Part shown: one piece after another, positions 55,038-60,907 of the stretch
How the letters are laid out: every line of letters starts with the position of its first letter
How positions within the stretch are numbered: position 1 is the stretch's first letter
Origin: an uncultured Methanosarcinales archaeon
GTDB taxonomy: Archaea > Nanobdellota > Nanobdellia > Woesearchaeales > JAGLXL01
Length of the DNA stretch: 64,000 nt
Direction: 5' to 3'
Assembly: GCA_964384425.1 (NCBI GenBank)
Contig: CAYLKE010000002.1
Location: 10,365 to 74,364 of the forward strand
Program-made: the position numbers and the translations under genes
The notes under the pieces: generated by a model
Told to the model about the DNA's origin: nothing
What the model saw: only the letters and a program-made list of their open reading frames with translations
Database searches by the model: none

Positions 55038-56000
55038 TTAGTTCTTACCGCACAGGGTCACAAACGCGATTAAAGATTCTAGCTGAATAAATTCATCACT
55101 TCCTTCGACGAGATGAAACTCTGTCTCACCGCATTTCTCAATAATTTTTATCTTATCTGTATCTTTTATACTTGTATTCCACATCTCACCCTGTAATTGC
55201 TTTATAATATCTAATCCAGCTAATCCATTGTTTAACATAGTCTTTAATAATAATTCTTTTGATTTAACAAATTCTCCTTGATAAGCAAGTTCTAAAATTT
55301 TCCTTATGTCTTCTGGTTGTGCCATTGAAGCAGTCATAATAACCTTATCAGAAGTTATATCTTTTCCAAGTGATGCAGCAGATTGTAATGTATTTTCAAG
55401 TTTTCTGCAATCTCCTTTACTTACTTTGTATAGTAATTCTCTTGATTCATCATCAATATTTAAGCCTTCTCTCTCGCATATTTGGTCGATTATATTATTT
55501 ACAGCTTCTTTTGAAAGAGGTTTGAATCTAAAAATTGCACATCTTGATTGAATAGGATCAATTATTTTTGAAGAATAATTACAGCTTAATATGAAACGAC
55601 ATGTACTAGTATAGTTTTCCATAGTTCTTCTTAATGCTTGTTGAGCTTCTTTTGTTAAAGCATCACTTTCATCAAGATAGATTATCTTAAATGGAACATC
55701 TCCTAATGCACGAGTTCTTGCAAAATCCTTTACTTTAACTCTTACAACATCTATTCCTCTTTCATCTGATGCATTAAGTTCTAAAAAATTATCTTTCCAA
55801 CTGTCTCCAAATATTTTTTTTACAATAACTAGAGAAAGAGATGTTTTTCCAACACCTGCAGGACCAGAAAATAAAAGATGAGGTAGATTTCCATTTTCAA
55901 CTAGACTGCTTATTCTAGCTACAATCTGTTCTTGACCTTTTATGTCTTCAAAAGACTGTGGTCTATACTTCTCAGTCCATATAATATGTGAATCTACCAT
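55038..56000 (-). CDS. rfcS: Replication factor C small subunit
   Basis: It has WTEKYRPQSFEDIKGQ, Walker A GPAGVGKT, Walker B YLDESDALT and an SRC motif (IQSRCAIFRF). It carries no intein. Confidence 0.92.
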   Translation of the reverse strand: MVDSHIIWTEKYRPQSFEDIKGQEQIVARISSLVENGNLPHLLFSGPAGVGKTSLSLVIVKKIFGDSWKDNFLELNASDERGIDVVRVKVKDFARTRALGDVPFKIIYLDESDALTKEAQQALRRTMENYTSTCRFILSCNYSSKIIDPIQSRCAIFRFKPLSKEAVNNIIDQICEREGLNIDDESRELLYKVSKGDCRKLENTLQSAASLGKDITSDKVIMTASMAQPEDIRKILELAYQGEFVKSKELLLKTMLNNGLAGLDIIKQLQGEMWNTSIKDTDKIKIIEKCGETEFHLVEGSDEFIQLESLIAFVTLCGKN

Positions 56001-56398: not shown

Positions 56399-57181
56399 TT
56401 AGGTATTATAAATGTAATTTTTAATAAAATTTGCCAACACAGACATTATCCCTTTAAGATTATTCTTTTTTTCTTCAAATAAATAACTATATGCTTCTTT
56501 TAATTTGGACACATCTATTAATTTTAATCCCATACCTATTTCTTTATTTGAAATATGATTCATTGTATCATCGCACAATTTTAAAAAATTTAATTCTAAT
56601 TTATAAATATTAAAAAGATCTTTTTTAGAAGAATGATTCTTTTTTAAATTATTTATTGATTCAATAAAATCATTTAATTGATTTATTGTTTTTTCAATAA
56701 ATGCTTCCTCTTTTTCAAAGAAAGCTAAAAATCCAGGATAATCTTGTTCTATAAAGTTCTGAAAATTAATATTATTTATTTTTTGAGCAGAGATCATATA
56801 ATCCACCCCAATATTAAAATTTTCAGCCATTTCTATTGCAGATTTTATCTTATTGAAAAATAATTTGTTTAGATCAAGATATACTTTATATGTATTTAAA
56901 TGAGTTGAGATATTACTTTTTATATTTTCATTTTTCTGTTCTACAAGCAATTGTAAATTTTTAGAAAATTTAGAAAAATCTTTATCTTTAAATGGTTTAA
57001 TTATAGTTCTTGCCCATTTCTTGAATATTTCATTTGCTAAAGCTTCAAAAATATTTTGATTGTGATTTTTTAAAATATCAATTTTATTTAAATCATCTTT
57101 TTTATTTTTTGTAGAAAGCAAAGTATAGAGATTTGCATAAACTTTTTCTACTTGATTTTTTGTTTTTGTTAATACTGCCAT
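56399..57181 (-). CDS. Hypothetical helical protein
   Basis: This is a 260-aa ORF with no recognisable motif. Confidence 0.45.
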   Translation of the reverse strand: MAVLTKTKNQVEKVYANLYTLLSTKNKKDDLNKIDILKNHNQNIFEALANEIFKKWARTIIKPFKDKDFSKFSKNLQLLVEQKNENIKSNISTHLNTYKVYLDLNKLFFNKIKSAIEMAENFNIGVDYMISAQKINNINFQNFIEQDYPGFLAFFEKEEAFIEKTINQLNDFIESINNLKKNHSSKKDLFNIYKLELNFLKLCDDTMNHISNKEIGMGLKLIDVSKLKEAYSYLFEEKKNNLKGIMSVLANFIKNYIYNT

Positions 57182-57247: not shown

Positions 57248-60200
57248 TTATCCAAAATAATTTGGTGCAGGTTCTGGATTCATTTCTTCAGAATTAGAAC
57301 GTTTTATTTTAGATTTTATTTTTTTGTAGTTATCTTCTGCTTTTTTTGTTACAGAACCTTTTACAATCTTAAGTGCTTCTTTAAAATCAGACATAGCCAC
57401 TTTTTTCTTTTTTCCTTTTCTAATAACATTCATAGCAGCTTCCCTACACACAGACTCAATATCTGCCCCCACATAACCTTCTGTCTCATCTGCTAATTTT
57501 CCAAGATTAACATTACTTTCTAAAGGAATTCCTCTTGTGTGAACTTCAAATATCTTTTCTCTAGTTTTCTTGTCTGGAACCCCACATAATATAACTCTAT
57601 CAAATCTTCCTGGACGTAGTAAAGCAGGATCAACAATATCTGGACGATTTGTTGCTGCTATAACAACCAATCCTTTTGTTTCTTCTAATCCATCCATTTC
57701 AGTAAGAAGCTGATTAACAACCCTTTCAGTAACATTATTTTCTTGTCCTCTTCCTCTTCTAGGAGCTATTGCATCTATTTCATCAAAAAATATAACTGTT
57801 GGGGACGATTGACGAGCTTTTCTAAAAACTTCTCTTATTGCTTTTTCACTCTCACCTACCCATTTACTTAGTAAGCTAGGACCATTGATTAATATGAAAT
57901 TTGCTTCAGTTTGATTAGCAACAGCTTTTGCAAGCAATGTTTTTCCAGTACCTGGAGGACCAAAAAGCAAAACACCTTTTGGAGGTTGAATTCCAAATTC
58001 TTTGAATTTTTTTGGTCTGTTCAATGGCCATTCAACTGATTCTTCTAATTGTTCTTTTACATCATCTAATCCACCAATATTTTTCCAAGTAACATTTGGA
58101 ATCTCAACAAGAACTTCTCTCATTGCACTAGGACGTACAACTTTTAATGCTTCCATAAAATCTTCATGATTTACTTTTAATTTATCCAAAATTTCAGGAG
58201 GAATTGGATTATCTTCATTTAAATTAAGATCAGGCATTACTCTCCTTAATACAACCATTGCTGATTCTTTTGCAAGTGCTGATAAATCTGCTCCCACAAA
58301 TCCATGTGTTATTCTTGCAAGTTTTTTTAATTTAACACTTTTATCTAAAGGCATATTCCTAGTATGTACTTTCAAGACCTCTAATCTTCCTTCTTGATTT
58401 GGAGGACCTATCTCAATCTCTCTGTCAAATCTTCCAGGTCTTCTAAGAGCTGGATCAAGTGAATTAGGAATATTTGAAGCTGCTATAACAATTGTTTTAC
58501 CTCTACTTTTTAATCCATCCATCAAACTTAACAATTGTGCAACAACTCTCTTTTCAACTTCTCCTTTTGTTTCTTCTCTTTTTGTTGCAATAGCATCTAT
58601 TTCATCAATAAAAATTATACTTGGAGAATTCTTCTCAGCTTCTTCAAATTTCTTTCTTAGATTATTTTCACTTTCTCCATAAAACTTACTATTATGTAAA
58701 ACGAAATAAGGAGCTACTATGAAACTATCATCATTAACAGTAAAATCATATAACTCAATTTTACCTTTTTTGTTTATCTTCTCTACTTTTTCCCAAGAGA
58801 TATCATCTCTCATTAACAGATTAAATTCATCATTTATTGATTTATCAAGAATTCTATTCTTCTTTGCTATATCATATAATACTTTTAATGAATGTTTTGT
58901 TGCATTGCCTGTTTTATAAACATAATAATCTTTGTTTCTATATTTTTTGTAAGGCAAAGTTCTTATTTTTTTAATTATATTTAAGGGATGAGGAATGTTT
59001 TCATGTTCTTTGATTCTTTTTACTTTATTTATTTCGTTTAATCTTTTTAATTTCTCTCCACTTTTAGGTTTTATGTTAAGAAATTTTTTTCTACCATCAA
59101 AACCCCTGATTATTAATTTATGCATTAATCCTTTTTTAGTCTTATGTTTTTTGAGATGGGTTTTTATTTTTAATTTTAGACTTAAAAGAGATTGTAATTG
59201 ATAAAGAAATTTTTCATCTTTTGCATAAATGATAGGAGTAGGATATTCTAGATTATTAATTTTTAATTTAGCTACACTTCCATCACCATCAAAATAACCT
59301 CTGACAAATGATTTAATTTCTTCTTTAGGTAAATTAATAAAATAAGGAGGAATAATAACTTTTGAATTAGCTGTAAATCCTAATTCTTTAATTATTTCAA
59401 CTATTAATTTAGAATAAACAATAACACCTAAGTTTTTGCCATTATTTTTTTCTTTAAAGTCAGTTATTCCAAAAACTTTTTTTATTAAATCTTTAAATCT
59501 TTTTATAAGAACTGCATCTTGATTGTAAAATCCTATTGAATCGCCTTTTTTTGATATATTTCCATCAGAAACAATTAAACCTAGAATTTCTAATAAATCA
59601 GGATTTGTTTTTTTAGGTATTTTAATAAAATTACTTCTTGAAAGATTTTTGCTTTTCAATGCATACATCTCATTCTTTTTTACTAAATTCTTAATTAATG
59701 GGATTTTGTAACTTTTTTCAGGAAGACTAATAGAATTTATTTTAAGTACATATTCTCCTGGAAGAATATTTTTTAGTGGTTCCCAAGTTAATCCGTTATT
59801 TCTATAAACTAAAAAAGGTTGATTTTCAGATGTTGTTAATTTACTTCCATCTTTAAACTCAATCTCATACCCTTCTGCTTTTAATTTTGTTACATGAGTT
59901 ATTTTTGATGAAACACATTTTTCTTTAAATGCATAATTACTAATTGGTTTTTTAAGTGTTTTAACAGAGTATCCATTAATATTTTCTATACTGCCCCCTC
60001 TTTCATACAATTTTTTAGCATTAATAAATCCTTTTTTTGTTAAAATAGGTGTATCTCCAGTAACACACATAATTTCTGGACCATTAATTAATATAAAATG
60101 TGAATTTGTCTCAGAAGCAACTGCCTTTGCAAGTAATGTCTTTCCAGTACCTGGAGGACCATGTAAAAGAACTCCTTTTGGAGGTTCTATTCCTAATCTT

Positions 60201-60907
60201 TCAAATAATTCAGGATGTTTTAGTGGGAGTTCGACCATTTCCCTAATCTTTGAAATCTCATCCTTTAATCCACCAATATCTTCATAACTTATCATAAATT
60301 CTGTTTCTGAATCTTTAACTTCAACTGCTTCTGGATTAAGTTCAATCTCTGTTTCAGATGTTATTATTAAAGGTGTTTTTGAAGGACTTGAACTTACAAT
60401 ATTGAATAATATATCACTAAATCCAAAACTACCCATACTCCCATTAAGACGTGTGAGAAATTCTTCCATTGGAGAACCTGGTTGAGCATGAAGTGTTCTT
60501 CTTCTTCCACTCAGAGATATAAAATCTCCTTTCATGATTGGTCTTCCTAAAAATCCTCTTTTGAATACATTTGGTGAAGCACGAATATGAATTCCTTTTT
60601 TAGCAGGAGCTATTGTAATTTTTTTAGCAGGTTTTACTTCTGTTTTTGTTAGTTGAACAAATTCTCCTAAAGTTACTTTTGCATTTCTTCTAGTAATACC
60701 ATCCATTCGGATAATATTTAATCCTAAATCTCCAGGATATGCTTTTTGAACTATTGCTAATGTTGTTCTATTTCCTATTATTTCAACAACATCTCCTTCT
60801 AAAACACCTATTTGAGCCATGAAACTTGAATCTATTCTTATTATGCCTTTGTTAACGTCTTCATTAACTGCACCAGCAACTTTTAGTTTGATATTTTTAT
60901 TTTCCAT
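57248..60907 (-). CDS. cdc48: CDC48/VAT-type AAA+ ATPase (two AAA modules) interrupted by an intein
   Basis: It has a CDC48 N-domain and D1 Walker [10 protein letters not shown]1 Walker B (FIDEIDA) lies after the insertion. D2 has GPPGTGKT and FFDEIDA. The extein length is 760 aa after removing 459 aa. Confidence 0.95.
58691..60067 (-). mobile_element. Intein (459 aa) with LAGLIDADG homing-endonuclease domain, inserted in the [13 protein letters not shown] motif of CDC48 D1
   Basis: It starts at Cys (CVTGDTPIL; codon 60065-60067) and ends at VLHN (Asn codon 58691-58693) with +1 Ser. The LAGLIDADG blocks are [13 protein letters not shown] and [11 protein letters not shown]. The flanks reconstitute the conserved [13 protein letters not shown]. 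Confidence 0.9.

Follow-up and report, generated by a model that had tools for sequence, protein, structure and literature searches.

A probable bifunctional intein with a Ser-x-Asn-Gln block B in the first pore loop of a Woesearchaeales CDC48

Introduction

CDC48 is a known intein host: the intein of the Anaeramoeba CDC48 resembles inteins that occupy orthologous bacterial or archaeal sites, and most such singleton inteins are described as devoid of an obvious endonuclease (PMC10710043). The element discussed here, unlike those, possesses one. It is an intein of 459 residues that interrupts the gene of the ATPase CDC48/VAT in a stretch of 64,000 nucleotides, hereafter the window, from contig CAYLKE010000002.1 (positions 10,365 to 74,364; assembly GCA_964384425.1) of an uncultured archaeon placed in the Woesearchaeales. 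As a mobile element this intein is ordinary and of a known kind; its unusual part is block B, one of the motifs of its splicing domain, where a glutamine stands in the place of the usual histidine.

The closest described relatives are the TliVMA and PhoVMA inteins (structures 7qss, 7qsu and 7qst), which provide both the best sequence matches (E value 4e-14) and the best structural ones. They have in common with the CDC48 intein a HINT splicing domain combined with a LAGLIDADG endonuclease, a P-loop ATPase as host, and a strand motif, (A/I)-T-H, located before block B. They differ from it in that identity is limited to 20-22%, in their host, the A subunit of V/A-ATPases (the molecule names of 7qss and 7qsu are V-ATPase and V-type ATP synthase alpha chain), in their insertion site, and in block B, which is the canonical Thr-x-x-His in the 7qss and 7qsu chains and Ser-x-Asn-Gln in the CDC48 intein. 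PI-PfuI, PI-PkoII (2cw7) and PI-SceI, bifunctional inteins of archaea and yeast, are built on the same overall fold, with two LAGLIDADG motifs that carry one catalytic acid each and with additional DNA-binding regions, putative in the case of the CDC48 intein (E values 1e-20 to 1e-10). Their identity to the CDC48 intein is 11-16%, their hosts are ribonucleotide reductase, DNA polymerase and VMA1, and residues 336-424 of the CDC48 intein were not matched to their DNA-recognition or stirrup domains.

No residue of inteins is more conserved than the histidine of block B, at position B:10 (reviews of 2014, PMC4031507, and 2023, PMC10663303), and its loss reduces or abolishes the first step of splicing in most of the inteins tested (PMC6333167, PMC10663303). 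A single functional exception has been characterised (PMC4031507). The CDC21-1 intein of Thermococcus kodakaraensis is, like its orthologs, a natural class 1 intein that splices without this histidine (Tori et al. 2012, cited in PMC4031507 and PMC6333167); it belongs to an unrelated lineage and compensates by Lys58, which comes after block B and forms part of none of the motifs. Both this intein and ours have AAA+-type hosts (MCM in the case of CDC21-1) and a bulky residue at position -1, Leu in the former and Met in the latter, and bulky residues at -1 were found in 2018 to be able to offset the loss of the B:10 histidine, in a study that also drew attention to the Leu of the CDC21-1 group (PMC6333167). 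No equivalent of Lys58 was identified in the CDC48 intein, in which B:10 itself is an invariant glutamine. Literature searches, InBase being outside their scope, returned no description of a glutamine at B:10 or of a CDC48 intein in DPANN archaea, and the Ser-x-Asn-Gln block B appears to make the family described below an undescribed variant of a known intein kind.

The interrupted gene

The product of the host gene is CDC48/VAT, with its N domain and its two AAA+ modules. The open reading frame of the precursor, which comprises N domain, D1, intein and D2, is located at 57248..60907 on the minus strand, as are all the features of the gene given below, and encodes 1219 residues followed by a stop. 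Pfam profiles match CDC48_N, both AAA modules and both lids (AAA_lid_3), and the exteins score 1009.7 bits against the CDC48 model TIGR01243 (cut-off 802.65), in a match that is interrupted exactly at model position 250. The N-extein (residues 1-280, 60068..60907) contains the D1 Walker A motif GPPGTGKT (60137..60160) and ends in NGPEIM, the Met at -1 being encoded at 60068..60070. The intein, recognised as such by profiles, an AlphaFold2 model and Foldseek, extends over 58691..60067, from Cys1 to His458-Asn459 (precursor residues 281-739). The C-extein (precursor residues 740-1219, 57248..58690) opens with Ser+1 (58688..58690) and continues with the pore-loop-1 segment of D1, KFYG, which includes a Phe-Tyr aromatic pair (58676..58687), and with the D1 Walker B motif IIFIDEID (58595..58618).

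The original prediction, made by reading this DNA alone, had described a 459-residue insertion running from CVTGDTPIL to VLHN, followed by Ser, between the Walker A and Walker B motifs of D1; it was exact in both its limits and its placing. Excision yields a CDC48 of 760 residues in which the point of insertion falls between Met280 and Ser281 and, as had also been proposed, this product is a restored protein: it matches intein-free relatives, and its junction aligns without a gap to Thermoplasma VAT, INGPEIMSKYYGQSE (5vc7/5g4f). The joined cdc48 site of 60 bp, with the intein removed, consists of TTTATATTAATTAATGGTCCAGAAATTATG followed directly, across the junction, by AGTAAGTTTTATGGAGAAAGTGAAAATAAT.

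Anatomy of the intein

A search restricted to the intein recovered 96 clusters of AAA/CDC48-type proteins with a related intein, from which 87 complete inteins, the window copy included, were extracted and aligned; counts of 87 refer to this family alignment. The other 86 are all intact and 44-62% identical to the window copy. Their named hosts are metagenome-assembled genomes (MAGs) of Candidatus Pacearchaeota, Woesearchaeota, Nanoarchaeota and Aenigmarchaeota, and homologues are already abundant in public DPANN assemblies, some of them labelled 'AAA+ ATPase/intein/homing endonuclease' by JGI. The insertion site is identical in all 87, NGPE(I/V/C/L)M/C...HN/S(K/R)(F/Y/W)YG (a slash marks a splice junction), with Cys1, the terminal HN, Ser+1 and the Met at -1 kept throughout.

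That the element is a full-length LAGLIDADG intein, as the original prediction held, is borne out by three profiles. Two of them come from Pfam, Intein_splicing with 49 bits (cut-off 35.8) and LAGLIDADG_3, which matches in two stretches with 60 bits. The third, TIGR01445, is the NCBIfam model of the intein N-terminal region and reaches 35 bits (cut-off 24.5) over intein residues 1-87. An AlphaFold2 model, computed from an alignment of 41 sequences, has a mean predicted local distance difference test score of 90.5 and a predicted template modelling (TM) score of 0.89. With this model Foldseek places the TliVMA intein 7qss on top (E value 1e-29, TM scores 0.73/0.78), the leading matches being altogether TliVMA/PhoVMA, PI-PfuI, PI-PkoII and PI-SceI, with E values from 1e-29 to about 1e-10. 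The HINT part superposes on the mini-inteins of TvoVMA, PabCDC21-1, Pho RadA and TFIIB with root-mean-square deviations of 1.8-3.2 Å over about 120 columns, and the endonuclease part matches I-DmoI, I-Tsp061I and PI-PfuI.

The N-terminal lobe of the HINT domain (intein residues 1-115, 59723..60067) is defined by TIGR01445 and by the beta strands that DSSP assigns in the model. Its first block, which starts at Cys1 (60029..60067), has invariant C1, T6, T10 and G13, and the codon of Cys1, a residue kept in 87/87 sequences, is TGT (60065..60067). Further on come the motif Ile56-Thr57-His58 (ITH, 59894..59902), also kept in 87/87 and aligned to KATHIYK of 7qss and 7qsu, and block B (59807..59848). 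A linker (residues 116-150, 59618..59722), delimited from the secondary structure of the model and the profile matches, leads to the LAGLIDADG endonuclease core (residues 151-335, 59063..59617), which LAGLIDADG_3 covers in its two stretches and in which the alpha-beta-beta-alpha-beta-beta-alpha fold occurs twice (residues 156-330, or 161-335 in the numbering of the model; DSSP). Both LAGLIDADG motifs retain their acids, as had been read from the sequence at the outset: motif 1 (59555..59596) contains LGLIVSDGN with D168, and motif 2 (59273..59308) contains YFDGDG with D262. Between this core and the C-terminal lobe lies a region (residues 336-424, 58796..59062) in which DSSP finds helices at residues 337-418 (model 342-423), and whose role might, at a guess, be in DNA binding. 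The C-terminal lobe (residues 425-459, 58691..58795) contains block F, ELYDFTV, whose Asp441 at F:4 (58745..58747) is found in 87/87, and block G, PYFVLHN, with which the intein ends, H458 and N459 being present in all 87 aligned inteins; L439, D441, F442, F449, H458 and N459 are invariant in this lobe across the family.

The intein therefore combines Cys1, a terminal His-Asn followed by Ser+1, an Asp at F:4 and a HINT fold, all of them features of class 1; the Thr-x-x-His of block B, the most conserved motif, is the one class 1 feature that it lacks, having Ser80-Glu-Asn-Gln83 instead, and class 1 can dispense with it, as the T. kodakaraensis CDC21-1 intein shows. Block positions are numbered such that B:10 is Gln83 and G:7 is Asn459. 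Class 2 inteins start with Ala1, have no N-terminal nucleophile and rely on a direct attack by the residue at +1, and the invariant Cys1 rules this class out. Class 3 inteins, which also lack an N-terminal nucleophile, are defined by a Trp-Cys-Thr triplet (Trp at B:12, Cys at F:4, Thr at G:5). That class is ruled out by Cys1 and by Asp441 at F:4, B:12 being Phe85 and G:5 Leu457. We may understand the element, very probably, as a bifunctional intein of the class 1 type, whose HINT domain encloses a LAGLIDADG homing endonuclease and which interrupts the genome's only cdc48 gene without disturbing the reading frame. A chance pattern is excluded because the profiles identify both intein and endonuclease, and because the host match splits exactly where the insertion begins.

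A block B without histidine

Pairwise HMMER alignment with the VMA chains 7qss and 7qsu (KIKVTPIHKLF) and with the Pho RadA intein (SLKVTPSHPVL) places Ser80 (59828..59830) on the Thr of B:7 and Gln83 (CAA, 59819..59821) on the His of B:10. S80, N82, Q83, P84 and L86 are invariant in the 87 family inteins, and a profile of the family finds Gln at B:10, in a Ser-x-Asn-Gln block, in 99/99 copies when those of the D2 site, described below, are included. The same position is occupied by His in 21 other inteins of the same proteins and matches, and the canonical His is also present in every one of the eight further inteins that the genome of the window carries. In P0102, the intein of an MCM protein from a Halobacteria MAG, a Thr is aligned at B:10; the CDC21-1 type of MCM intein is known for lacking the histidine, and P0102, which presumably belongs to it, could act as a positive control.

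Among eleven copies, the Gln codon is CAA in three and CAG in eight, and the codons of Ser and Asn vary as well. Because the codon varies synonymously, though His is one transversion away, the glutamine of B:10 is held by selection. His58 of the ITH motif was considered as a specific compensation for the absent histidine; this is unsupported, the same motif being present in 7qss and 7qsu, which have His at B:10.

Inteins of the Ser-x-Asn-Gln type are not confined to D1. They occupy the paralogous pore-loop-1 site of D2 in P0002-P0005, P0094, P0122 and P0135, with the pattern KGP(S/E)L(L/F)/C...HN/S(M/K)WVG, sometimes together with a D1 copy in the same protein; the D1 and D2 copies suggest that the element may have moved ectopically between paralogous sites of one gene. 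A third CDC48 site is found in P0032, from an Aenigmatarchaeota MAG, where the intein stands in VSQLL/C...LLHN/TLMDG and has VSAIQRF as block B, again with Gln at B:10. The residue at -1 is Leu at the D2 and QLL/T sites, in contrast to the invariant Met of the D1 site. From these alignments we lean, with some reservation, towards seeing in the family a second natural lineage of histidine-less yet splicing-competent class 1 inteins, with Gln fixed at B:10 and at least three sites of insertion in CDC48.

A second, unrelated type of intein was observed in the same pore loops. It starts with Ser1, as SLPY(D/E)E..., has a canonical T-x-x-H, and is inserted four residues downstream, in (W/Y)(V/Y)G(K/Q/G)/S...AHN/SE(E/K). 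Its carriers are P0009, P0012, P0015, P0022 and P0031 for D2, and P0065, P0068, P0072 and L023 (genome G007) for D1; some proteins have inteins of both the Cys1 and the Ser1 types, at sites four residues apart. The MCM intein of the window's genome has a similar start, SLDYEEP.

Empty sites and distribution

Within a single taxonomic family, that of the window's archaeon, several states of the intein homing cycle coexist. Intein-free alleles, sought among related genomes, exist in G003, G004, G005, G006 and G008, whose CDC48 proteins of 759-782 residues have an empty site, NGPEIM/SK(F/Y)YGQSE, and the junction NGPEIM/SKFYG expected from the original prediction is among them. G001 has a full-length copy of 467 residues, 46% identical to that of the window. 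G002 (L022, on its contig C8) has at the same D1 site a mini-intein of 176 residues from which the endonuclease has been deleted, and which keeps ITH, SANQPFL, YDFTV and LLHN. In G007 (L023), the different, Ser1-type intein is found four residues downstream. The CDC48 of G006, encoded on contig C14 by two open reading frames (L024/L025), was considered as a candidate split intein and rejected, the frame break being situated inside a coiled-coil insertion, in the D1 lid; the two frames overlap, the break comes after IHTRNMP, and similar coiled-coil insertions are present in frame in P0033, P0047, P0070 and P0085.

The identity of the inteins to the window copy does not correlate with that of their exteins (r = -0.08). 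The intein of G001, from the same family, is only 46% identical, and the copies of more distant hosts reach 58-62%, while the extein identities of the hosts compared are all similar (53-63% and 64-76%). This comparison suggests horizontal movement, not decisively. That the element turns up only sporadically in Pacearchaeota, Woesearchaeota and Aenigmarchaeota would be a consequence of homing.

The endonuclease is preserved in a way that is consistent with such a role. The mean pairwise column identity is 0.56 for the LAGLIDADG core, 0.56 for the N-terminal lobe of HINT and 0.63 for its C-terminal lobe, with about 1% gaps, and it is still 0.51, with few gaps, for the helical region of residues 336-424. 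All 87 sequences have an acid, Asp or Glu, at position 168 in motif 1, and all 87 keep D262 in motif 2. Such a picture is that of a domain maintained by selection, and we infer from it that the endonuclease may well be active. Selection was gauged from column conservation and from the codons used in the motifs rather than from the ratio of non-synonymous to synonymous substitution rates, a measure that is unsuitable here because synonymous sites are saturated, the closest relatives available as DNA being 55-62% identical at the protein level, in AT-rich genomes.

The pore loop and the genome context

In VAT, Tyr264 and Tyr265 of the SKYYG segment are essential residues of pore loop 1 in the first ATPase ring (bioRxiv 10.1101/105866). 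By alignment, the intein is placed two residues ahead of the corresponding pair in the substrate-gripping pore loop 1 of D1, here Phe-Tyr. The unspliced precursor should be inactive, because it would hold 459 additional residues inside the loop that grips the substrate.

The assembly amounts to 1.05 Mb in 23 contigs and is 89.7% complete. A single protein matches TIGR01243, and the proteins that come next among the AAA matches of the genome, one of them PAN-like, have a single module each and lengths of 411 and 482 residues. cdc48 being present as a single copy, splicing of its intein is probably required in this host.

The neighbours of cdc48 are housekeeping genes: the small subunit of replication factor C (RFC), an Lrp-like regulator, a hydrolase of the metallo-beta-lactamase fold and glycyl-tRNA synthetase. 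The RFC small subunit (55038..56000) had been singled out as free of inteins, and indeed NF001679 matches it in one unbroken stretch, from 4 to 318 of 322. The intein of CDC48 had also been regarded as the only clearly mobile element of the window. This stood for the three families searched along that part of contig C2 which the window covers, a set that is not exhaustive of mobile elements: outside the CDC48 intein there was no match to Intein_splicing or LAGLIDADG_3, and to Phage_integrase there was none at all. Just downstream of cdc48, an open reading frame of 260 residues (56399..57181, minus strand) has no NCBIfam match; its GC content is 17-22%, and its product is rich in Lys, Asn and Ile, and helical-looking.

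Beyond the window, the same genome contains eight more inteins in seven genes. Their hosts, named from the translated sequences and not by a family search, are ribonucleotide reductase, MCM, GyrA, RtcB, Lon and, for the remaining two, P-loop ATPases of 1782 residues (with two inteins) and of 886 residues. These inteins or their hosts are located at C5:42909-44009, C8:28131-29453, C2:108400-109683, C5:51985-53298, C4:68300-71389 (two inteins), C2:1800-3182 and C8:19469-19762. This is a high load of inteins for a genome of only 1.05 Mb.

How the intein may splice and move

Splicing competence is strongly implied by the single copy of the host gene, by the invariance of the motifs, by the synonymous variation of their codons and by the survival of the mini-intein, which can persist only by splicing. 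In the scenario that we propose, the precursor of 1219 residues would fold first. Cys1 would then attack the carbonyl of Met(-1) in an N-S acyl shift, supported by Asp441 at F:4, and the resulting thioester would be handed over to the hydroxyl of Ser+1 to form a branched intermediate. Cyclisation of Asn459, aided by His458, would free the intein, and an O-N shift would complete the CDC48 of 760 residues. The first of these reactions would have to run without the histidine of block B: Gln83 and Asn82 may form hydrogen bonds with the scissile peptide or with the oxyanion, and the bulky Met(-1), invariant at the host site, may replace by strain the ground-state destabilisation otherwise exerted by the histidine. 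The freed intein, or the precursor itself, would cut the joined site of intein-free cdc48 genes, repair then copying the intein in.

Alternative explanations

Some observations weigh against this understanding of the locus. The allele is rare, being present in 3 of the 61 genomes of the same order and in 2 of the 151 genomes of an even sample of the phylum, that is, in about 1-5% of the genomes sampled, which is compatible with homing as it is with an old element being lost. The genome, being 89.7% complete, leaves room for a second copy of cdc48, without intein. A distant allelic copy, P0127 (1087 residues, D1 site NAPAIM/C..., 35% identity over the N-terminal lobe), has SANH in block B, with His at B:10, so that an intein of the D1 site can do without the glutamine. 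In P0125 and P0128, the nearer relatives of P0127, block B reads SSNQ and SRNQ (all three came from an all-against-all search of representatives with the N-terminal lobe of HINT, which gave 22 matches, several of them spurious repeats), and His and Gln have therefore been exchanged within the history of the D1 site. Finally, in the intein of L032 (CAZJUI010000003.1), from a distant Woesearchaeota MAG, one in-frame stop, TAA, stands where the invariant Gly74 is expected (about nucleotide 3226 of the locus). The cdc48-intein gene is otherwise intact, and either decay of this copy or a fault of the assembly could be the cause. The original prediction had pointed to stops or frameshifts in close relatives, along with a failure to splice, as the mark of a degenerate element or of a misassembly; this distant stop is the only one encountered, the inteins of the window and of its close relatives being free of them.

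The rarity of the allele would fit an intein that still splices while its homing endonuclease is dead, and which is a fixed, vertically inherited passenger, kept as its precise deletion is a rare event. The mini-intein of G002 witnesses the loss of the endonuclease in the lineage, and the intein of the nearest relative is only 62% identical to that of the window, with no recent transfer visible. We find this possible but rather doubtful, in view of a core as conserved as the splicing domain, with almost no indels, of the acids at 168 and 262 preserved in all 87 sequences together with many other invariant residues, and of an intein similarity that does not follow that of the hosts, as the case of G001 illustrates. 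One might also imagine that, with the glutamine of B:10, splicing proceeds slowly or only under certain conditions, the intein becoming a post-translational switch acting on CDC48 instead of a neutral parasite. The weakening of the first step in most inteins that have lost the histidine (PMC6333167, PMC10663303), an insertion in the substrate-gripping loop that should inactivate the precursor, and the purifying selection exerted on Gln, though His is one base away, would all agree with a regulatory function. This is, however, pure inference: no pair of sensing residues and no condition have been identified, the second cysteine of the window copy, C51, is not conserved, and a different but efficient catalysis, such as that of the T. 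kodakaraensis CDC21-1 intein (PMC4031507), accounts just as well for the invariance of the glutamine. A switch therefore seems to us unlikely.

Two further explanations would deprive the element of its function or of its reality. A degenerate remnant, unable to splice, with the function of CDC48 lost or transferred to another ATPase, might be evoked from the absence of the canonical histidine, from the reduced nature of DPANN genomes and from the stop codon of L032. Yet the frame of 1219 codons is intact and its exteins score above the CDC48 cut-off, every other splicing residue is invariant in the 87 sequences, with synonymous variation underlying the fixed amino acids, the mini-intein retains the same motifs, and the only other candidates of the genome are the PAN-like protein and the other single-AAA protein; a pseudogene is highly improbable. 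Still less credence, indeed next to none, can be given to an assembly chimera that would have put foreign sequence into cdc48. The intein has a GC content of 23.7%, against 32-33% for the exteins, but the insertion is in frame and exact to the codon, no fewer than 87 independent assemblies, of several origins, have the same architecture, and neighbouring genes go down to 18-22% in a window whose mean is 26%. The closeness of the intein to that mean also leads us to discard its GC content as a sign of foreign origin, the gap between intein and exteins being due to the contrast of an intein rich in Lys, Asn and Ile with a conserved ATPase rich in Gly, Ala and Arg.

Implications

A bifunctional intein that splices without the histidine of block B, if our reading is correct, would catalyse its N-S acyl shift differently from the canonical inteins and differently, too, from the solution based on Lys58 that was found in CDC21-1 of T. 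kodakaraensis. The hundred or so natural sequences with glutamine, the mini-intein of 176 residues and P0127 with its histidine make up a comparative set for the study of a first step that would be independent of histidine. The same set could show whether the effect of bulky residues at -1, known from engineered inteins (PMC6333167), operates in nature, and a histidine-independent mini-intein would have some interest as a tool for protein engineering. The annotation of such genes is directly affected as well: the real CDC48 of this organism has 760 residues, and to read its gene as an 'AAA family ATPase' of 1219 residues is misleading. As to the biology of these archaea, the element would mark gene flow among DPANN lineages, and its location in the pore loop means that splicing would gate all the unfoldase activity of what is, as far as the genome shows, the only CDC48 of the cell.

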